Below, one piece after another: positions 1 through 61,863 of a stretch of DNA of 64,000 nucleotides. Positions within the stretch are counted from its first letter, which is position 1, and each line of letters begins with the position of its first letter. Origin of the DNA: Hydrolagus affinis (lineage: Eukaryota); NCBI GenBank assembly GCA_012026655.1, contig JAAILG010000113.1:62001-126000 (forward strand). The letters run 5' to 3'. The translations under genes were made by a program, and so were the position numbers. Below the pieces are notes generated by a model that was not told where the DNA came from, searched no databases, and was given only the letters and a program-made list of their open reading frames with translations.

Positions 1-369
1 ATGCACAGAGGGTTGACTCAATCTTGCTATTCTGTTGCCAAGTGCTTCAGCCTGGCGGCTGCATAGCTCTGAGGTCTCCACTCAAATTGCCTCCTAGGAT
101 GATATTCATATGGGACCCAGGACAGGCAATGTAACCACAAGGGGCATTACAATCAAATCTGATGGTTTTCTTACCCAATGTTCACACATAAGTACTATAA
201 AACAGTCTAGTTGAAGTAATAAAGAAGATTTGTAGCCACAAATGCTGTCCTAGCTAACTCAACTAAGACCAAATGCAACCCTGCAACCTTCTAGGCTGTA
301 CAGGCTCTGAAAAGTAATTAGCATCAATTAATTGAAAGAATATCATCCATCTTTCTTGGTATCCTGACC

Positions 370-6052: not shown

Positions 6053-6490
6053 TAAAATAACTTACATTTGATAAAATGCCTTATCAAGTAATCAAGGCAT
6101 CTTAAAGCACCTCACAGGATGATATTGTAAAGCGATGTGACTGTGTGTAGTTTGTGGACACAGCAGGCAATTTGGTGCGCAGCAATGTCACACAAATAGC
6201 CATGGAGTGAGTGGTCAATTTTATTTGAGGGATTTGTAGGTCAAGACACCAAGAAAAAGTCAGTTACCTTTTCAAATAGTGCCATGTTATCTTTAACATG
6301 CAAATGAGCAGCCAGATGTGACCTTGGTTTAATGTTTCATCCGAAGGGTGGTACCTCCAACCACACAGCACACCCCAAGCATTGCATTGGGGGCATCAGC
6401 ATAGACTATATGGGTTCCAAGTCTTAACTTTGGGGCCCAAGCCCACAGCCTTCTGATACAGAAACTTCCCACAGTAATCACTGAATAAGC
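6053..6490 (-). mobile_element. Deu-domain SINE
   Basis: ccttggtttaatgtttcatccgaagggtggtacctcc is the reverse complement of the Deu core. Confidence 0.75.
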
Positions 6491-7984
6491 ATGAGGAGCA
6501 AAAACCCTGAATGATTTCTTAGTGCTTCTAGGATGCCAACTCGAATTGTAGTCTAGTGCAGGGACTTTCATCTGCCTGTGTGATCAGCACCACAGCAGGA
6601 GGTTAATTTACCCACTGAGCCATTAGGGAGCCCATTTTCTCATGTTTTCGGTCAGCTTTTGCTGTGTAAAGCCTCATGAGTTAGCCTCAATCCCTTTAAG
6701 TTCAAGCTGTCAGGCAATTAGTAGTTGCACCCGAGTGCCTGCCAAGACTTCTATGAGTGATATAATCAATCTGTTGCCAACTACTTTAAATATGTTCCAA
6801 CATTCAGTATGGCAGTGAGCAAAACACCAGTTAATCTCCTTTGACATTCAATGTGATGTGGGCCGGGGCGCAGAGATATTGGATTGGAGATGCACTTTAC
6901 AGGGTAAATTTAGAAGCTCTGGAAGAGCTGACAATACAAATTCAGATGTCACCTGGGATTTGAAAATTCAATGTCCTGGTCAAATTTGTACAGTGAAACT
7001 AGTCAGTATATCTGTTCTTTTGATAACTTTCTCCCACAAATCCATGTTTGAGTATATCCTGTGAATCACTTTGAGACATCTCGATGATAACATAACGCGC
7101 TATATTAAATGCAGGTATACAAATTTTAAGTGTGGTGTTTGTGGTCTTATTATGTTTGAAAAATGATGCTTCAACGTTGACATTTAAGCATCAACTGTGA
7201 TCATTCAGGGTGGCTTGACCCTGGAATAATGCTGACTTTTGTATCAAATTGCAAGGATAGTGATGTACAATCGATGTCAAACTGGAAGCAAGCAATCATT
7301 AAAATTGCCACAAACAATAACAAAATCTACCAACCAGATAGCTCAATGGTGTACATCAGTGTTTCCCAATTCTAGGCTTGCCACATTCAATACAAAATTA
7401 GTAACACATTGCTTTTAGTAGGGGCAAAAGTGAACAAGAGGAGCTTAAAAATGTGCTTATTGGTGAGAGTAACACACCATTGGGTGTCCACAACGCACAC
7501 TTTTACTAAGGCAGCAGAGGAGGCATCTGTTTATATCCTCTAAGTGCAAAATTGTCATTGAAAAAGATAAGGTACAAATTGCAAATAAAAGTTTGGAAAA
7601 TTAGAAAAAAAAGAATAAAGTAATGATAATTTGCTCACTCAATATACCGCTGTTTGTGGGACAATTGGCTGTCGAGTTTCATGAAATATATAGTCAATTC
7701 ATACTGCCAGTATTTATTCATCAGATCCTTTGCCACTTTCCTCCTCCCCAAACACCTAGGAATGGCAACCTTGTTTGCAGGAAACAAATTCTATATGTCT
7801 ACGCTTATATTCCACAGGTTCCCAGAGTACTAATGGACCAAATGTTTACCTCAGAGATCAGATTCTAAACTTGTTCTTCACTATCTATGGCATTAAATAT
7901 GTATCTTAATTTTCTGTCAAGCAGTGCAGTACATTAACAGTGTGCAATATGATGCCAAGCATAGGTAAACATAAGGCACCGTAC

Positions 7985-9306
7985 CCTTCATTGAGTGCTT
8001 TGATTTTCTCCATATCTTGAATTACATTCAAGAGGACTTTAATCTTTTGTTGGTTTGATTGTAAAGTCTCCTCAATGGATTGCATCCTTCCCTGCAGGTC
8101 ATGCAAATCATCCCTAGTGAGATGAATTTGATTGATTTCCTTAATTCTTCTGGTAACTTGGGATTTTATCTTCATCCCAGGAGAAGGGGAGTGATTATGA
8201 ACAGGTGATAAACAGCTCCTAGTGTTAACTAGCCCCGGCAGAACACCATTTAATGAGTTCAGGGGTAAGGAACAAGATAATCCTGAATGATCAGTCCCCG
8301 TCAATGGCTTCGATGTTTGATCAGCTTCTAGAGCCAAAGGCTCGAGACGAAACAATGAGGCCTCTGGTTTGTCATTGTCTTTATGAAGGAAGTTGGACCT
8401 AGATTGATTTTCAGTTTGAGTCAAATCAGAAAGCCCTGTGGACCTCAATGTTTCAGACTCCAATTTGTGTATGCTGGAACAACTATAACAGCGATTATTC
8501 TTGCGCTTGGTAGGTTTAGATAAAGGGTATCCTGGTTTGCAGTGGGCATGCCTATGGTTTGTTTTATTGTCTAATGTCAAGCTTTTGGAGTGGTGTACAA
8601 CTTTGGATGCATGCAAACCACGGTGCGAACCTTTTGTTTCCTTTAGTGCATCTTGTAAATTAGTATCCGGTGCTTGTGGCAAATGTTTCTTTTTACTACT
8701 GTACGCGTTGCATTGGGAAGATGGAAGTTTGATGTTTGGGGTTTCATTTGGGGTTTCTTGAACTTGATTATCCTCTGTTTGCTTGGCCTTAGTTGTAGTC
8801 GTGAGATCAGAAAAGTCCTTAGTGGAAACACTCACAGAGACATTGTTGCCTGCAAGAGCAGGGTTGATGGCTTTTGTTGAATCAGTTGACTCCAATGCGT
8901 TGACCTTGCCTGACGTAGGAGCATTCCGAACACGACTTCTGAACTTTGGAAGGTGCTTTCGTAGACTTGGTGACGTCTGAATGGCAATGCTCTTGAGGAC
9001 ACCTTGTGGTTTAGGAATAGTCAGTGAGCAATTAGTCAGGGTACAGTGCCTGGAGGATTGCATTTTCCCTTTGAGTGCTCCTGATCCTTGCACAGACATT
9101 GCGTCACTTCTTGCTTTCATGGAAGATGCAGCATCCTCTTTGAAGTGCACCTGCTGGATCTTGCTTTTGTGCTGATGGATCTGCTGCACAATGTTAGTAG
9201 GAGGTCGACCTTCCTGCTTAAGTAGAACAGAATGTGCCTTTGGATTCTGCTGAGGGGCAGGGTTACATTTCAATGTCTGCAGAAAATTACTTTCCTTACG
9301 GCCCAT
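7985..9306 (-). CDS. INSYN2B: Inhibitory synaptic factor 2B (INSYN2B/FAM196B), large first coding exon (440 codons + 2 nt); downstream exons not found in this window
   Basis: Within ORF 7906..9324(-). Motifs APQQNPKAHSVLLK, QQVHFKED, IAIQTSPSLRKH and the C-terminal coiled coil DLQGRMQSIEETLQSNQQKIKVLLNVIQDMEKIKALNEG match recalled FAM196B sequence. First ATG at 9306 has strong Kozak context (ACGATGG). Similarity ends at a GT donor (GAAGG|GTACGG, 7985/7984). Location inside a DOCK2 intron matches the known arrangement. Confidence 0.9.
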
Positions 9307-10289: not shown

Positions 10290-10885
10290 TGTAGGTAATT
10301 TTTTTGCATATGGTGTAGTGTCTTTGAATTTAATGATCAATTTATTTGAGGGATTGTTTGGCACGAGAAGCAAGAAACTTCCTTCTCTTTTCAAGTGGTG
10401 CCATACAGACATGATTCAATACTTTAACATCCACCTGAACATCTCAAAAACGTGAAATACTGCAGATTCTGGAAATCTAAAACACAATCAGAAATCGCTG
10501 GGAACACTCAACAGGTCAGGCAGCATCTATGGAGAAAGGAAAAGTGTGTCAACGTTTTGGGTCAGAACTGACAAAGATTTTCTAATGAAGGGCCGTGGAC
10601 CCAAAACGTTGACTCACTTTTCCTTTCTCCGTAGATGCTGCCTGACCTGCTGAGTGTTTCCAGTGATTTCTGTTTGTGTTTTAGATGGGATCTCAGTTCA
10701 ACATCTCATCTGAAGGACAGCACCACCTACAATGCAGTGCACACAAGAAGCATTACATTATTATATTAGATAGTACACTATTGGAGTTTCAGCACACAGC
10801 ATGAGTTCAATGTCTCTACCTAGGGCTTGAATCCACTACCCTCTGACTCAGAAGTAAGAGTTCTACCAACTGAGCCAGGCTCCCA
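10290..10885 (-). mobile_element. Deu-domain SINE interrupted by the palindromic element at 10446-10686
   Basis: tttaacatccacctgaac | gggatctcagttcaacatctcatctgaaggacagcacc ... ctgactcaga..ctaccaactgagcca. Confidence 0.75.
10446..10686. mobile_element. Second copy of the palindromic element, with ~89-bp inverted arms (10475-10563 / 10598-10686)
   Basis: caggtcaggcagcatctatggagaaaggaaaagtg versus cacttttcctttctccgtagatgctgcctgacctg. Decayed core ctaatgaagggccgtggacccaaaacgttgact. Confidence 0.8.
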
Positions 10886-11948: not shown

Positions 11949-14817
11949 CTATCTGGCCCAACTGGTATTGTGCATTTTCAGTTTGCACATGGTGACACAT
12001 GGTGAAATTATTAACAATTTTTGTATTTGTTATAGTGACTGATGCCCTGGTACATCAATCTAGCAGAGTAGGGTCAGTCTAGCATCTATGATGTTGAAAC
12101 ATATCAAAGCAGTTGATGGGTAATTACTGTCAAGTATAGTGACTGCTTATTGGTAGGAAATTAAATACTAATATACCAGCTGATAGTTACCCAGACCTGC
12201 TACAACTGTTAACCCCCAAGTGCACAAAAATCAAATCAAAACAATTTTAAATTCAAAATAAAATGTTCCCGGAGCTTGTCCTGTTCTGCATTTGCCCCTC
12301 ACACCCCAGAAATATTAGAGCAAAGGGAGGCCATTTTATCCATTCGAGTCCCCTCCCTGAAGCATCTGCTCTACCACCATTCCCTGCTCGCTCCTCACAT
12401 CCATCAATATTATGTTCCGTCACATCCAGTTAGGAACTCGACCTTGAATGAATTCGGAACTATTCTCCCCCCTATCCATTTGTTAAATAATATTTAATAA
12501 TTCGCAGTTTACAATGTGTTTACTTTTGGGTTCTTCCTTCCAAAATCATTTTTTTTTGGAAAGGTGGGAACATCCTTCATTTATCCAAAAAGTATAACTG
12601 TTGCTGAAAAGCTGAAAGATCAATGAATGATCAAGAGAATCGGAACTGACGGTAGAAGTGGTGTCACATCACCCCTCGCCCCGAAGTGATTGCCGTAAAA
12701 ATACTTTCAGACTGTTCAAAACAGCTCCATAGAAAATAAGAAATGAAATGGGGAGCTTTCACAAACAAGAACCACGAGCACTTTAACACACAAGGTACAG
12801 GATTGTCTTTTTTACTGTACAGTCACACCAGACTTCAGGAGAGAATCATTGAAAAGTGTAGTGACTGTTCCTGCAGGCAAAACGTGGCACCAATCTCCCC
12901 ACAAATACCAGGCAAATGACTGATTCTGTCTGGGGGATTGTTGGCCAGGACCTGGGGGAAACCCATTTCTCTTTTCAAATACTCTGTACTGCCATCATGG
13001 CATCTTTAATGTCCACCTGTAAAGGCAAAAAAAAATACCAGCAACACTGACAAAACATGAGTTCCTCTGCACTGTCTTAGAGCGACCTGATCTATAATTG
13101 AAGTCCAGTCAGTAAGTCTACAGGGGGTAGATCACATCAGGAGTGGTTTGGGTGGAATGTGGTTCTAGTTAGCGATGAGGCAAGATTTCGTATTAAGAAA
13201 CCCCAGGTATTAGACTTATATGGTTTGAGGATTTCAATAGAGAGGGGAAAAAACGCCAAAGAGACGGGGGGGGGGAGGGTGGATCAAACCAGGGAGTCTC
13301 GACAAAGCTCTTGGAGGACAAATCAGTATTTGAAAAGAAAAATAGACAAATTTTCTGGGGGAGGTTTAATCGAAGTGTGACTGATGGCTCTCATGTTCCT
13401 GAACTCAACTGTAAAACTTATTTCAAGCCTAGCCAAGTCAAGCAACTGAGAGACCCTTGAAGTATGTTATCTTAATAGCCCTCATAACCCCATTATCACA
13501 GTCTCAACATTCAAAGTCCAATCTTGATTTGAGAACCAGGGCTAATGGGCGAGGAATCGATTTGAGCAGATGCTGTAAATACATCTCATACTTTTTCCAA
13601 CAAGACGCAAATGTGAAAGGGATTTTTTTTGGGGTGGGGGGAGATGGTGGGGGAGGGGGTGCGGGGGGAAAGAAAACACGGTTCCCTGCAGTTCTTAATA
13701 TAAATTAGAGAAAAGAGGCTTTTCCAAATAAAAATTTAATTTCAATTTCATCATTTTATATCATCTCAAATCTTCTTAAATCTGAACGATGTTCTCAAGA
13801 CTGAGACACAGATAAACTTCAGGTCTCTCTCTCTCTCTCACACGCACACACACACATTATTGGGGAGAGGAAAGCATGTAGGTAATTAGCTGATAGTATC
13901 CTTAAGAGTCCAGTACTGTATTCATGTCTCCACATTCTCAAGCCATTTACATTGCCAGGTTATTTTCGAAAAAAAATTAAACGTGTATAAAAGCAATATA
14001 CCCTCACCGATAATTTCGCCCACAAAACACGCAGTCAATCTACTTTACAACACATATAGATCCTGTATAGAGCCTATCAGGCGGTTTGAGGCGTCTCAAT
14101 AACACGATAGGGTTCTCTATCAAATGCACTAGTTACCTGTCAATTAATCCTTGAGCATCAATCTGGGATCCCTTTAACGAGGCGAATCCAAATCGCTGAG
14201 AGTCACAGATTCCCACCCGGATGGCAGAGGTGAGGAGGAGGAAATGTCAACCAGTCAAACCTCGGCGTCCTGCATTCTCAACAATCTAGGTCAGTCTTGA
14301 CTTGAAGGAGTTAAATCAGGTCTTGATGCCAACGGTTAGTGGTTCAATCCTCCGTGTGTTTCCTAGATTCCCGACAAGATATTGCTGAAGAAAGATTGTC
14401 TTCCCACCCACACCCCCTCCCCAACCAACCAAACCAACCAACCAAAATAAAAGGAAGGAACCATTTCGAGTTGATCTCACACATGACGCTCTGTCTCCAC
14501 GTGGGTGTCCCAGTGGTTTGGTTGTTGACTTTCAACCTCTTTTTAAGTCGTCGAATGCTGTTTGCAAGGGATTTACACACAGCTCCCCCGCGTTACTGCT
14601 GGTGTACATGACACACACACACACACTGCCTTCCTGACACAGGGGTTAACACAACCGGACACCAATCCCGATGGAGCGGTGGCCGCTGTTGTGACCACAC
14701 AGGGAGGTTCAGGAGGACAGCGAGCAACCTTCAGGAAGTCAGTCACCCCGACCAGACAGCAGTGACAGCAGGTCCATTTCACAAGGACAACAGCGGGAGA
14801 GACACACAAGAAATATC

Positions 14818-14966
14818 CACTCACTCAGTCACTCACTCAGTCAATCAGTCAGTTAGTCACTCACTCAGTCAGTCGCTCAGTCACTCACTCAGTCAGTCAG
14901 TCACTCATTCACTCACTCAGTCAGTAACTCACTCAGTTAGTCACTCACTCAGTCACTCAGTCAGTC
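14818..14966 (+). repeat. Compound (TCAC/TCAG)n tetranucleotide microsatellite
   Basis: tcactcagtcactcactcagtc.. over ~150 bp. Confidence 0.95.
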
Positions 14967-15977
14967 GCTCTGATTTTTTTTGCGTGGAAAATTCATTCAT
15001 TCCCTTGAATTTGTTGTTTTTTGTGGTAAGGAAACCTACCGCCATCAGAGAGAGAGAGCGTTCTGTACTTTAAGGCTGGCAAATACATAGTCCATTTGAA
15101 ACTGAGCGTTAAACCGCAACAGGGGCTGTTTGTACAACACTGAACACACAACAAGTCTCCACTTCACCAGCTGGGCTCTCCCTGCTCTGTGTGTGTCTCT
15201 CTCTCTCTCTGCCTCTCGTGTAGTGTTAACCGTGGATGGGCTATAACAGCCGATATAATACTGCTTCACTCGTATCTCTGTCCCTCCCTCCTCTCTCTCT
15301 CTCTCCCCCCCACCCCCCCAACACACACACAAAGATGAAGGTCAACCCTGGCTCCACTTTGCCAGTCGTGTCTCTCACAGGATCACATCCAAACGCTCTT
15401 GTGAAACAGTTTCCAACTGTATTTACCATCACTGCTGCAGAACTGTTAGCCTCACAGCTGTGATTCTGTCCCTCTCCTCCCCACACCCTCTCTCTCTTCG
15501 TTATAAGCATCAAGCCCGGGTCAGGGAGTTTGTGGGGCTGTTGAGTGAGGAAGGATTTTTCTGTGAGTAAATTAGCAGCCATGCCAATCATCCGGAATCA
15601 CCTCCACAAACATCCAGCATCTCTCCACACACACTCTCACTCACACACACTGCCTTGCCTGCCTGCCTGCCAACGCAGTCTGCCTGCTTCCACACACACA
15701 CACATCATGCCTTCAATTGTTTGGATTCAATTAGATGTTATTGCCTGCCCTGGTTTATCTCTAGCCAAGCAGCACATTTGCCAACTTCAAAACAATGATT
15801 TGCTTTTGTGTTTTGAACCTTTCCCCCCCACCACTCACTCCCTTTAACCTCCCCACCCCATCCACCCACCCAAACCCACCCACCTCCTTTCCTGAAAGTA
15901 CTGACTCATGTTCTCCCTTCCCACCCAATAACTCGCCCACCTAACCATCGTTAACGTGCAATTCCTAAAGTCCTGCC

Positions 15978-16284
15978 GAGTCCTGTAGCTCACTGGTTAG
16001 AGCACCTGCCTCACAAGCGAGAGACCTGGGTTCAACTCCAGGCAGGGCAAAACCAAGGGCAAGTTTCCTTACTCCACACGCCTGCTAATAATCCCTTTAA
16101 AAAAAAGTAATGATTTGGCCATTTCAATCCACGACTGTTTGTGGGACACTGTTGTGCGCAATTGGCTGCTGCGTTTCGCCCACATATATTCAGTCGATTC
16201 ACTTTACTGTATGTTCTGTGAAGCACTTTGAGACATCTAGAAGATGTGTAAAGTGCTATATCAAATGCAAGCATTATTATAATT
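15978..16284 (+). mobile_element. Full-length ~310 bp tRNA-derived SINE with L2-like tail
   Basis: Head gagtcctgtagctcactggttagagc (A box) and gggttcaactcc (B box); body gactgtttgtgggacac..ggctgctgcgtttcgccc; tail tatatcaaatgcaag(ATT)n. Confidence 0.9.
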
Positions 16285-17129
16285 ACTAAACCGTACAAGT
16301 CACACATCACGTGTGGGGTGCATCACGACTGAGCCATTCCTGTCCGTGCTCGATATTCACACAAACAGCAATAAACAAAATTACATTTATAGAGCGCCTC
16401 TCACATTGGGAGGACGTCCCACCCTCTCTGGCAGGGAATTTCTGGAGGATGATGAGGAATGAGAGCCCAGGCTGATGTTAATGGTTTATTATACATACAA
16501 ACATGAAATACAAACTTTCTTATCTCTAACTACGAAGCGAGAAACTCGCGTGTACCGTCTTGTAGTTTGCAATCTCATTTTTTTTTAACTTCCATTTTAA
16601 AATACTTTAAAGTACATTTTCATACCCTTTTTAATATAACTGTTTAATAGTCAAGGGAATTATTTTGGAATGTGTTCTAACATTGCCCTGTGTTTGTGGC
16701 TTGATGTAATACAAAGGGAGTATTTTACTCACGATCACCTATTCTGTGGGATGGAGTCAGGGCGTCTCCAAATGTCCATTTGGGGATTATTACCCCATCG
16801 AACGGCAGGTTGCTTTTAATCGTTATCCCTGGAGAAGCAATCTGCCAATCCACAGGTTAATAATCACTCCCAATTTTTAAAAAATAGTATTGTGATTTAA
16901 TCACTCACTCCATTGCTGTTTATGGGACACTGCTGTGTGCAATTGGCTGCCACATTTTGCCCACAAAATATTACAGTCAATTCACTTTACAGTACAGTAT
17001 GTTCTGTGAAGCACTTTGAGATGTCTCAACGATGTAATAAAGCACTGCATCAAAAACAAAGATTATTCCTATTAGAATTGGTTTCTCTGAATACGATTTT
17101 TACAAGACTCAGCTTCTCCTTTATCCTCA

Positions 17130-17545
17130 TATAGATTTTTGAAATGTGCCATTCAGTGGAAACAGACCATGCTAGTGTTTATACTCCACATTAATCTTCA
17201 CCCAGTCCTTGCTCTCTCCCTACATTGGCTTCTCCCTCACGTATATCTAGCTTCCGCTTAAATGCATCTATACTATCTGATTCAACCCCCACTTTGAGCA
17301 GTGAGTTCCACATTTTCAATACTCTTTGCGTAAAGAAGTTCTTTCCCTATTATTTTCTCCTATTACTACTGACCTTATTGAAAACCTTTTTACAATTATA
17401 AACACCTCTATTAGATCCCCTTTTAACCATGTCTTCTATCGTGAAAAAAACCCAACCTATCCAGGCTATCCTAATAACCCTCCAGCACTGGTATCATCCT
17501 CATTAACCTACGTTTGTACTCTATCCATTGCTGCTATATCCTCTC
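17130..17545 (-). mobile_element. Degenerate CR1 fragment
   Basis: gagttccacattttcaatactctttgcgtaaagaagtt and aacacctctattagatcccc are reverse complements of the CR1 FFTQRV..W and LRGDLIEV segments. Confidence 0.65.
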
Positions 17546-20500
17546 CCAGAATTTTCATTTGTTTGTACACATGTCTTTGCTCATCGAGGCACATCAATTG
17601 TGTGCAATCAAACAGATAAACTCACCCTCTTGCCCCTAACACACACACCCACACACACAGAGTTGTTCACTGAAACTTTCCTGGCTTCTCACCGTGTTGT
17701 CAATTCTTAAGGTTGAATTACATGATGTGCTACTTTCTGGGCTATAATCACACTCAAAACTCTAAACTCATGGCTCAAACGCTTATGCCTGGTTTCCAAC
17801 CATAAGCCAGAATGTAGCACATTGTTCAGCAGCAGCAAGATTGGAAGTAGGAAGTTTACCAAGTGTGGTGGGGTTAGAGTGGGGTTGCTGTGAAAAGCCG
17901 TGCAGATCCCTGGTTAATTTTTAATTTAAAGAGCTAGGCATGCAACCAGCTAATATACTGCTGGTAAGAGTGAGATTGTTTAATTGGTGTGAATTACAAA
18001 GCTCTGGTAGGTGAGATTTCATTGTCTCACGCACAAATTAGCAATGTTTAAATCTTCTGCCCAGTTTATTTTGTGGAGTTTTTTTGCATTAATTTGCTCA
18101 TCAGCTCATGCAAATATTCATACTATTATTACAGCATCATGTTAAACGAGTCCAATGTCTTGGTCCTTATCCCCCTTTCTCCTAACATTATCCAGCTATC
18201 GATTACACTCTGTGAATAAATACTTTCTGGTGTCTGCCTTGAATTTTGCCCTTCACATCTCTGAACCCTCTTGTCCTGCTGCTTCAGTGAAACTAAGTAT
18301 TGTTATTGGATTCTACATCATATTTAGTTTCTTATATTCCTCTAATAATGTCCCTATGGTTAAAACAATGCCTTGGGACATCCTCCCAAAATTAAAGGTG
18401 TTATGCAACTGACATTTTATATATTTTGTGTCTCCTTTCAAGGCTGAAGAGCTATAACTTATCTACCTCAACTGATGCTTCTGATTGCATCTCCTTCCCT
18501 TGGTTTCCAGGTTCCTTTCCTACCCAAATGTAATGAATGTTGAATCTGTTCACTTTCTCAAAGATTGAATGGTCCCCTTAATTACAAGAAGGTGAGACCC
18601 CAGTATGTCCACCCATCTACGTCTTCCCACTCATGGACTGCTGGCTTGGCATCAACATTACATTCTCTAAACTCACGGCTCACGAGGGTCCATCTGCTGG
18701 CAGGTGCCATACTTAACCACCTTCTGTCAGCCCAGGCTGTCTGACCAAAACTTGGCTGTCATACCCAAAGCTTGGCATGTATGTCAGAAATCCTCGTTCA
18801 CTTACACTAACTAAAGTCTTTTGACACATTTACACAAAATAGTGGAATCTATTTATAATGCACATTTGTAAGTGTTCCAGTCTTTCTTTCTCAGGGACAT
18901 TTTGCTGTTCATGCACCCAAGCATTAAAGAGAAAACATCTATTGATTTTCGTCAACTGTTTTTAAAACTAGCGTGCCGTTATTTCTTCCATTCAGATTCA
19001 TCATCATTCTCCAATTCTTTATTCATGAATTGTGAAGTCTTCGTTTCAAAGTAAATCATATTTTTGGGGAAATTTATCTTTCTGACATGAATGCATGAAC
19101 TGTAAATCGATCCATTCACAATACATTAGTGTAACAGGGAAGCGTGTCAGAGTGATTTCAGGACTGTCAGTCCAGAGTATTCAGCTCATCTCCTGAAGGC
19201 ACCGACTGGTGCTGGACTGGGGTTCAGCTTGCTTGGACCTTATCAAAATGGTCATTTTCACATGTGCCAACAAGTCAGTCAACTGTTTGCCCCACGGGGA
19301 AGCATCAATTATAATTTGTCCTCTCTCAACTGATAACCACATCAGAGAAGAGTTGGAACCTGTAATCCACCTAGTGAGGGCTCAAATATGTGCTTATTGA
19401 ATATCAAATGACCAACTTACATATAAATGTAATTTTGTTGTTGTTGTTGTTGTTGTTATGATTATCCTTGATGGGGGTTCAGGTAAACAGTGTTTCCTCA
19501 GAACTAATGGGATTCCAAAGTATCACCAGACACTGGAAAGTCAAGTCAGAATTACATCAACCCTCCATGGTGGTCTCCATATTCCAGTTCATGAACTAGG
19601 CAGGTCCTCAGTACTCCAGGCTACTGCTGATGACAGCATTGCCAGCCTGGCTCATTGGCAGCAATTGATAAGTTAGTCACTGGGAGCAAGGGTTCTTACC
19701 ACTGACCATTCAGCTCGTTCATTGGCTCTTGACTATCTGCACCTAATACTCTCTGGACAGCCACCAGTGTAGGTAACCAGGGTGCCACCTTCCAGGGAGA
19801 TTTCATGTTCAATTCCAGACAATTTCCTTGTATAGGTAGCAGCTTTCAATTCTCAGTGTGGTTTGGGTGCTGTTAAGCTCGGTGATGCGTTTCTGTGAGG
19901 GTCAGGTACTCGGCTGACAGAACCCCCCACCCCAAACACCCCCCCCACCCCCACACCACCCCCTCCACACACACATTCATCTTGGTGTCAACCTTTTCAA
20001 CACTCACGTCTGAGTTAGAAAGTTGTGCATTTAAGCCCCACTTTGGGACCTTGAACTCATATAGTCTAAGCTGAGACTTCAATGCAATGCTGGAGAATTG
20101 TTGCCTTGTTTGAAGTGCCCTCTTTTAGATAGGATGTTTAACTGAGTTACAGTCTACCTGTTCAGGGGTAAATTAAAGGTACATAGAAAACATATTCCAA
20201 ACGAGATTGTCCTGGCAAACAATCCCCAACATGAAATTGATCATTTACTCCATGCAGCTTGTGTAAATCGGCTGCTGCATTTATACAGTATATAATAAGA
20301 TCCACAGTCATTATACTTAATGGTATATTTTCTAAAGGTCTTTCAGGGTTCTGCCTGACATAACAAGCGCTATATCAAATGCAATGATCATCATTGTCTT
20401 ACAGGGAAGCGGGAGAGTTGTTCCCCTGTAAAAATACCCTAGAAATTCCCACCTTCCCTAACCTGAGGACATGTGTATCTCCGCCTAGACAGAAAGAGAA

Positions 20501-54441: not shown

Positions 54442-54536
54442 GACTTTTTTATGGAGACCTTCCTCCTATTCATGGACCTGATTGGGAAGAATGTCTATCC
54501 TGGTGACTGGATGGCCATTAGTATGGTGCAGAACAG
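54442..54536 (+). CDS. DOCK2: DOCK2 internal exon, 95 nt: [31 protein letters not shown](R)
   Basis: Acceptor ttttttccacAG, donor GTAGGA, phase 0/2. In frame with the flanking exons; [13 protein letters not shown] is the DOCK-A motif. Confidence 0.93.
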
Positions 54537-57463: not shown

Positions 57464-58064
57464 ATGTGAAAGGCATGCTATAAATGTAAATTGGTTATTA
57501 TTTGAAGATTTGCTTTGTTATTGTTGTCGTTATTTGCTTTTGGTAGGACATTGATGGGTGCAAATTGAATGCCGTACTATTTATAAGGTACACAATCACT
57601 CCACATTGCAGTACTTTATAGGCCAAACATTCTGAGTTCACCATTCTATAATTCTATGAATATCTACATGACTATCTTCTAATTGCAGCAGTGAAGCCGT
57701 TTCATAAATATGTCCAACACCCTGGCTTTGATTATCATTCCTAGTCACATATTCCAGCTGTTTCAGCCATTTCTTCAGTACAAAGAAAAGCTTCCTTCTG
57801 CCTGTTTAACCTTGCCTTTTACATCCCTGGGTTTACTTTCTGTATCCCGTGTATTTCCTGATCTGGGAATGCCTGATGTTGAAGATGAGTGCCTGAAATG
57901 GGAAAGTACATATACAATCTCTCACTTTAATGAGCAGGCTACACAGCAAGTCTAACTTCCTAAAACAAATGCAAAATACTGCAGATGCTGGAAATCTGAA
58001 ACAAAAACAGAAGTCACTGAGAACACTCAGCAGGTCAGGCAGCATCTATGGAGAAAAGAAAAGT

Positions 58065-58102
58065 GAGTCAACGTTTCGGGTCCACGACTCTTCGTCAGCA
58101 CT
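58065..58102 (-). ncRNA. Minimal type I hammerhead ribozyme-like motif (antisense partner)
   Basis: Reverse complement reads AGUG-CUGACGA-A-GAGUC(GUG)GACCC-GAAA-CG-UU-GACUC. Core and ACGU palindrome intact; one mismatch each in stems I and II. Confidence 0.55.
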
Positions 58103-58104
58103 GA

Positions 58105-58141
58105 AGTTCTGACGAAGGGTCGTGGACCTGAAACATTGACT
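58105..58141 (+). ncRNA. Minimal type I hammerhead ribozyme-like motif
   Basis: AGUU-CUGACGA-A-GGGUC(GUG)GACCU-GAAA-CA-UU-GACU: both core boxes, stem II, and stem I AGUU/GACU. The ACGU palindrome has mutated to ACAU. Confidence 0.6.
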
Positions 58142-58181
58142 CACTTTTCTTTTCCCCAAATCTAACTTCCTAACTTGGCTG

Positions 58182-58234
58182 CACACACACACACACACAC
58201 AGACACACACACATACACACACACACTTACACAC
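58182..58234 (+). repeat. (CA)n microsatellite
   Basis: Imperfect CA run. Confidence 0.9.
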
Positions 58235-61784: not shown

Positions 61785-61863
61785 AGTGTTTCTCAGAGCC
61801 ATCAACAAGTTTGCAACAACCATGAACCAGAAATTCCTGGAAAACATGAATTTTGAGCATCAG
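61785..61863 (+). CDS. DOCK2: DOCK2 internal exon, 79 nt: (R)[26 protein letters not shown]
   Basis: Acceptor tctttttcccccAG, donor GTAAAC, phase 2/0. [14 protein letters not shown] resembles DOCK2 rather than DOCK1 (AINQYADMLNKKFL). Confidence 0.94.

Follow-up and report, generated by a model that had tools for sequence, protein, structure and literature searches.

The locus and its insert

The window analysed here is a 64,000-nucleotide stretch of Hydrolagus affinis DNA, and unsigned positions refer to it. Two + strand exons, at 54442–54536 and 61785–61863, match consecutive stretches of DOCK2 (residues 967–998, E 2.8e-13, and residues 998–1024, E 3.7e-8, respectively), and the insert that lies between them is therefore intronic, as an earlier sequence-only reading of this DNA had proposed. 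It is more than 3 kb from the nearest DOCK2 splice site on either side and is a passive passenger of the intron.

The insert is flanked by an exact 13-bp direct repeat on the + strand, with its left copy at 57951–57963 and its right copy at 58161–58173; among 2,000 shuffled flank pairs, none gave a repeat of at least 11 bp. The exact repeat is enclosed by a 17-nt repeat with one mismatch (57947–57963 and 58157–58173), so that the target-site duplication (TSD) is 13 bp long if it is exact and 17 bp if one substitution is allowed. Inside it, two inverted arms of 54 nt, 58049–58102 and 58105–58158, are 91% complementary and meet head to head at a 2-nt junction (58103–58104) that is specific to this copy. 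The RNA of the insert is predicted to fold at −105.1 kcal/mol (z −13.2), a stability reached by none of 200 shuffles. The duplication, the inverted repeat and a hammerhead motif on each strand had all been reported in the sequence-only reading, and all are present.

No insert-free allele of the 57951–58173 site was found. A contig from organism F spans 57600–57992 with 7 differences, and the left junction of the insert is thus common to both organisms. An imperfect CA microsatellite occupies positions 58182–58233, starting 8 nt past the right duplication.

The arms extend unequally. The long arm (57964–58102, − strand) covers family positions +1 to about +137, matches a natural copy at 93%, and represents the 3′ end, comprising the pLTR end and a tail, of a putative Neptune-type Penelope-like element (PLE). 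The tail of some 33 nt (57966–57998, − strand) is found on the long arm only, and is delimited by the 3′-end clusters of the family and by the tails described in the available text of PMC3846280, PMC8557442 and PMC11167929. The short arm (58105–58158, + strand) is a second, tail-less copy of the same end, running from +1 to about +54. We regard it as very likely that the insert consists of two such 5′-truncated 3′ ends placed head to head, probably in one insertion event.

The parent Penelope-like element

Both insert arms are 3′ ends of a Penelope-like element that encodes a reverse transcriptase (RT) and a GIY-YIG endonuclease. Some copies extend upstream into a pyrimidine-rich UTR and from there into a decayed coding region, and in 29 of 30 loci with endonuclease region and UTR, one of them the query locus, the arm lies downstream on the same strand. 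Both the Penelope origin claimed in the sequence-only reading and the adjacency to RT/GIY-YIG frames that it suggested looking for are borne out by these loci.

Stop-free parent frames contain RT motifs (393 aa in L244), a CX4CXXC linker (seen in L100, L109 and L115) and a CXXC before YIG. Of the 7 endonuclease-region frames scanned, 1 scored over the cut-off of the Pfam GIY-YIG model; RVT_1 stayed below its cut-off for the RT frames (16.2 and 19.9 bits), and in the Atlas the RT frame matched RVT_1/HTH_animal clusters at 0.96–0.97. Searching the PDB sequences with this frame gave no match. Most matches of the RT query in the window were to another repeat at the frame edges, and were disregarded.

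According to the available text of PMC8557442, Neptune and Nematis PLEs have a C-terminal GIY-YIG domain, a CX2-5CxxC linker between RT and endonuclease that marks these two groups, and a CCHH motif. The parent frames here resemble them in their order of RT, CX4CXXC linker and CXXC before YIG; the assignment to Neptune is a motif-based one, and the linker is common to Nematis. None of five extended loci held an intact full-length parent, so that neither its 5′ half nor the tandem junction was seen. At one locus (L103, G000:C5585:1-2243) a UTR plus arm is followed by endonuclease, UTR and arm, with an inverted arm in front; this short partial tandem is the textbook PLE arrangement in miniature.

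Family size and copy architecture

With the 197-nt insert as query, 3,904 candidates were found in G000. An arm 30-mer gave 3,091 exact matches and a ribozyme 32-mer gave 389, against 0 for the reversed control in each case, and a rough capture-recapture estimate, from 8/30 and 2/98, puts the number of arms in this genome at 12,000–19,000. The ribozyme forms the 5′ end of a basic unit of about 137 nt, and copies diverge from the column majority by some 10%. Family positions are counted from the first A of stem I (+1).

Copy architecture was scored at 98 loci sampled through a mid-arm motif, such that neither end was selected for outside +57 to +86; these remain from 100 listed places after a duplicate locus (L159) was dropped and one place, belonging to the same C116 pair, was left out. 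Several near-identical copies with common flanks lie on short contigs (L046/L047, L130/L132, L135/L141, L138/L144 and L139/L140/L142/L143). They are likely to be haplotype duplicates or segmental duplications, and were counted once where noted.

The sample comprises 54 single arms, 43 head-to-head pairs and one locus in which the UTR alone is inverted. The 3′ ends cluster at +100 to +110 (36 of 98) and at +130 to +139 (47 of 98), and the difference of about 33 nt between these clusters is the PLE tail. A tail is carried by exactly one arm in 38 of the 43 pairs, where 21.3 would be expected (p 9e-8). In the 30 loci closest to the complete palindrome, no two of the 30 junction strings are alike, 29 are distinct by ends and spacer, and the short arm may end anywhere from +33 to +111. 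The differing centres and variable short-arm ends show that the palindrome is not inherited as a unit; each is likely to have been made anew, and we hold the identification of the insert and its de novo origin, taken jointly, with the same high confidence as the two-arm reading given above.

Exact TSDs of at least 9 bp occur in 22 of 98 copies, compared with 6 of 2,000 shuffled controls, and TSDs of that length with one mismatch allowed flank 20 of the 30 closest palindromes, compared with 42 of 1,500 controls. Under the boundary rule used, 66 of the 98 copies have no exact TSD of at least 7 bp. When tabulated, as the sequence-only reading had advised, exact TSDs proved not to be of fixed length but to range from 7 to 19 bp, and they are richer in AT than the flanks (73% versus 60%). 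The insert is short, palindromic and of high copy number, as a MITE mobilised by a cut-and-paste transposase would be, but such an origin has a negligible probability given the unequal arms, the variable TSD length, the single-armed majority of copies, the differing centres and the continuity with an RT/GIY-YIG frame. The preference of the sequence-only reading for retrotransposition over cut-and-paste therefore stands.

The window holds a second head-to-head stump of the same family, at 10447–10699, with another centre, a longer short arm and a tail on one arm; it is flanked by a 9-bp duplication (10438–10446 and 10700–10708). At two further loci (L075, 1457–1771, and L080, 1390–1583) one arm of a head-to-head pair runs 45–76 nt into the UTR, and these pairs link the short palindromes to longer truncated copies.

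The hammerhead motifs

Both strands of the insert read stem I, CUGACGA, A, stem II, GAAA, C(G/A), UU and stem I′, the minimal type I hammerhead recognised in the sequence-only reading. In the − strand motif (58066–58102; predicted cut after 58070) the core is intact, and the two changes from the family majority are mismatches, G-G in stem I and A-C in stem II. In the + strand motif (58105–58141; predicted cut after 58137), which has the sense of the DOCK2 pre-mRNA as had been stated, the core is also intact; here stem II contains a G-U wobble, and ACAU in place of ACGU breaks the helix III palindrome. That reading had counted one or two substitutions per motif and thought the copy perhaps inactive, which agrees with the two found in each and with the predicted burial described below. 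An Rfam scan of the insert returned no match to a hammerhead family up to E=10, and only hairpin-driven miRNA matches below their cut-offs.

In several respects the motifs match the metazoan PLE hammerheads in the available text of PMC4209133, being of type I with an extra base before stem II, the G10.1-C11.1 pair, palindromic positions 15.2-16.2 and a 4-bp stem I; stem II is 5 bp here, in contrast to 7–8 bp in Schistosoma. The same text describes dual motifs on opposite strands, probably truncated PLEs, but these lie 100–700 bp apart, compared with 2 nt here.

Within the insert, the ribozyme fold is predicted to cost 51 kcal/mol (+ motif) or 55 kcal/mol (− motif) relative to the hairpin, and the ribozyme stems have a predicted probability close to zero, because in either transcript the antisense arm precedes the motif and pairs with it. 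By the same kind of calculation, stem II of a natural single arm (L079) forms with a probability of 0.98. Both ribozymes of the insert are accordingly predicted to be locked inactive in the hairpin, and the proposal that a transcript of either strand contains a working ribozyme is not upheld by these predictions. Minimal motifs require a same-strand partner or protein help, according to the available text of PMC4209133 and PMC11167929; given this need and the burial in the hairpin, the motif in the DOCK2 pre-mRNA is predicted to be harmless.

The family majority sequence forms an intact minimal type I hammerhead. In genomic copies, G8 is kept in 69% and G12 in 75%, the core is intact in 28 of 68 copies, and core, stems and palindrome together are intact in 6 of 68. 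The CpG sites of the hammerhead decay as those of the flanks do, and the core is no better conserved than the flanks, contrary to the preferential conservation that the sequence-only reading had anticipated: the genomic copies decay neutrally. Double variants of one stem II pair number 24, of which 18 are distinct; pairing is kept in 12 of the 18, in 4 by a U-A swap, which is a modest hint of selection in the source lineages, although the A-U class could have arisen by two common transitions. The copies in which the stem II G-C pair is replaced by U-A are L124, L134, L135, L136 and L141, of which L135 and L141 look like members of an older subfamily without the TATA-like motif described below.

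On that reading, the insert would belong to a non-autonomous, retrozyme-like family of its own, propagated as a whole palindrome with a ribozyme in use on either strand. Palindromes are indeed numerous (43 of 98), the hammerhead is intact in the family majority, and the available text of 10.64898/2026.07.22.740005 derives retrozymes from PLE pLTRs; the non-LTR retrozymes described there are likewise non-coding, pLTR-derived and equipped with a type I hammerhead. Those retrozymes, however, form head-to-tail tandems bounded by the cut site, whereas the copies here are single or head to head and begin ahead of the ribozyme. The 98 loci include no head-to-tail tandem of whole arms (a second same-strand fragment is present in 4 of 98), 5′ ends fall exactly at the cleavage site, +34, in only 2 of 98, and to these are added the energetic cost of the ribozyme fold in the hairpin, the 54 single arms of 98, the 30 differing centres of 30 and the scattered short-arm ends. 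We consider a separate retrozyme-like family very improbable.

The common 5′ end

The 5′ ends of the copies are concentrated at −2 to +7, where 55 of 98 lie (11% per base, compared with 0.6% inside the unit), and this wall is present in both subfamilies. All 16 copies that pass it stop by −82, where about 63% would be expected to continue further at the inside rate (p 1e-7). Internal 5′ ends show a weak excess near the predicted cut site, with 8 of 39 at +32 to +36 (p 0.037, uncorrected) and only 2 exactly at +34, and a small share of templates could have been cleaved there. Cleaved RNA as the main template was rejected. An origin of the wall in a splice acceptor (a pyrimidine tract followed by AG) was also rejected, as 38 of 46 ends retain the G that splicing removes.

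The parent carries a TATA-like motif near −30 and an initiator-like motif at +1; the TATA-like motif is not kept in the older subfamily (L135, L141). Among the non-C matches listed (100 of 652), a G, as would derive from a cap, precedes +1 in 51 of 100, possibly contributed in pairs by the partner arm; in single arms alone the count is 7 of 15 (p 0.057). A C at −1 is kept in 15 of 24 unbiased single arms, which indicates that the 5′ ends spread over several bases.

We place about even confidence in an RNA that starts at the ribozyme. The main alternative, to which we give appreciably less weight, needs no UTR promoter and explains the pile-up either by an RT stop or template effect at the 5′ edge of the ribozyme or by one short master RNA. 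It is compatible with ends that spread over some 10 bases, with a weak cap-G signal and with reads in which no RNA start was observed. A structural block, on the other hand, would be expected to halt the enzyme 3′ of the stems and not past them, and neither the presence of the wall in both subfamilies nor the termination of every wall-passing copy by −82 favours it. In Drosophila, the 3′ pLTR of Penelope drives downstream transcription, with a start well upstream of the ribozyme (PMC2377424, available text).

A proposed insertion mechanism

Both arms of a pair seem to come from one template, as judged from the variants they carry: 30 of 31 pairs have the same subfamily marker on both arms, and the arms have minor variants in common at 47 of 1,611 sites, twice the rate of 1.4% obtained by permutation (0 of 10,000 permutations). 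Gene conversion between the arms could be another source of this similarity. In a few pairs, a body and an inverted tail overlap barely or not at all (L221, with body +2..103 and tail +106..138, and L222, L066 and L068).

For a PLE that inverts by fold-back self-priming, whether on an antisense template or on cDNA, head-to-head orientation and arm-shared variants would both follow, and the available text of PMC3846280 favours this route, on an antisense template. We nevertheless think it unlikely here, since the barely overlapping arms of the four pairs named above cannot copy one another by fold-back, and since short arms prefer the +100–111 end, as single arms do.

Priming from both target strands is, in our judgement, rather probable. 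L1 twin priming offers a parallel, in which an inversion arises within one TSD-flanked insertion and the second primer anneals upstream on the same RNA; barely overlapping pairs of a body and an inverted tail are typical of it. In contrast to L1 twin priming, most arm pairs here overlap fully, and their formation would call for strand displacement or a second RNA. For the Poseidon element PAc of Anolis carolinensis, a PLE of another clade, the available text of PMC11167929 reports features that agree with those here: the enzyme cuts and extends both target strands in vitro at AT-rich targets, ribozyme cleavage is unnecessary, and RT starts internally on the RNA at two sites that lie downstream of the ribozyme and bracket the tail. 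Head-to-head pairs and a 5′ stop at the ribozyme are not addressed in that text.

A possible scheme, which we put forward tentatively, combines twin priming with an RNA whose start lies at the opening bases of the hammerhead, both copies running off that start. The RNA would begin at about the first hammerhead base, likely from a promoter in the 3′ UTR of the element, and the endonuclease would make staggered nicks in AT-rich DNA. One strand would then prime at the distal site, +137, and the other further 5′ (mostly +104, and about +54 in this insert), probably on the same RNA. Both cDNAs would reach the 5′ end of the RNA and be joined by end repair, with fill-in giving the duplication. The product would lack the upstream promoter region and undergo no further copying, with both ribozymes predicted to stay locked inside the hairpin. 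If this scheme is correct, it would explain the one-sided tail, the head-to-head arms, the variants common to both arms and the stumps of 104 and 137 nt, which number in the thousands, and the ribozyme would serve as the 5′ end of the RNA and not as a cutter. It predicts one tail per pair and an RNA start at the ribozyme, both of which can be tested. A twin-priming mechanism for PLEs had no match by title or abstract in the open literature searched; such a mechanism, or an RNA start at the ribozyme, may already be published.

Relation to known insertions, and transcripts

The insert belongs with the inverted-pLTR insertions known from endonuclease-bearing PLEs, for which the inverted pLTR, one-sided tail and TSD are already published, and is an ordinary example of them. 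The closest parallel is Pen2a/Pen2 of Adineta vaga, which in the available text of PMC3846280, PMC8557442 and PMC8969392 shows the same head-to-head inverted, 5′-truncated copy and a 30–40 bp tail at one end only, with TSDs of about 8–10 bp in contrast to 7–19 bp here. The pile-up of 5′ ends at one place is a further difference from Pen2a/Pen2 as described in the available text of PMC3846280. Both arms of the present insert are cut back to the ribozyme, so that, compared with Pen2a/Pen2, no ORF is left and the insert looks like a MITE. Such stumps carry a risk for annotation, in that they resemble MITEs, miRNA hairpins or two-way ribozymes, and their copy statistics bear on how PLEs form tandem and inverted structures, an open question in the available text of PMC8557442.

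The family is present on both strands, at 6,415–8,713 reads per run, in raw single-cell poly(A) data obtained from a single sample of a related organism. No sharp read start or end at +1, or start at +34, was seen in these reads, whose library type is ill-suited to the purpose. In run X21, 578 reads have one common flank behind the tail-less end (L065:1599), which suggests one well-expressed arm-carrying transcript in organism G.
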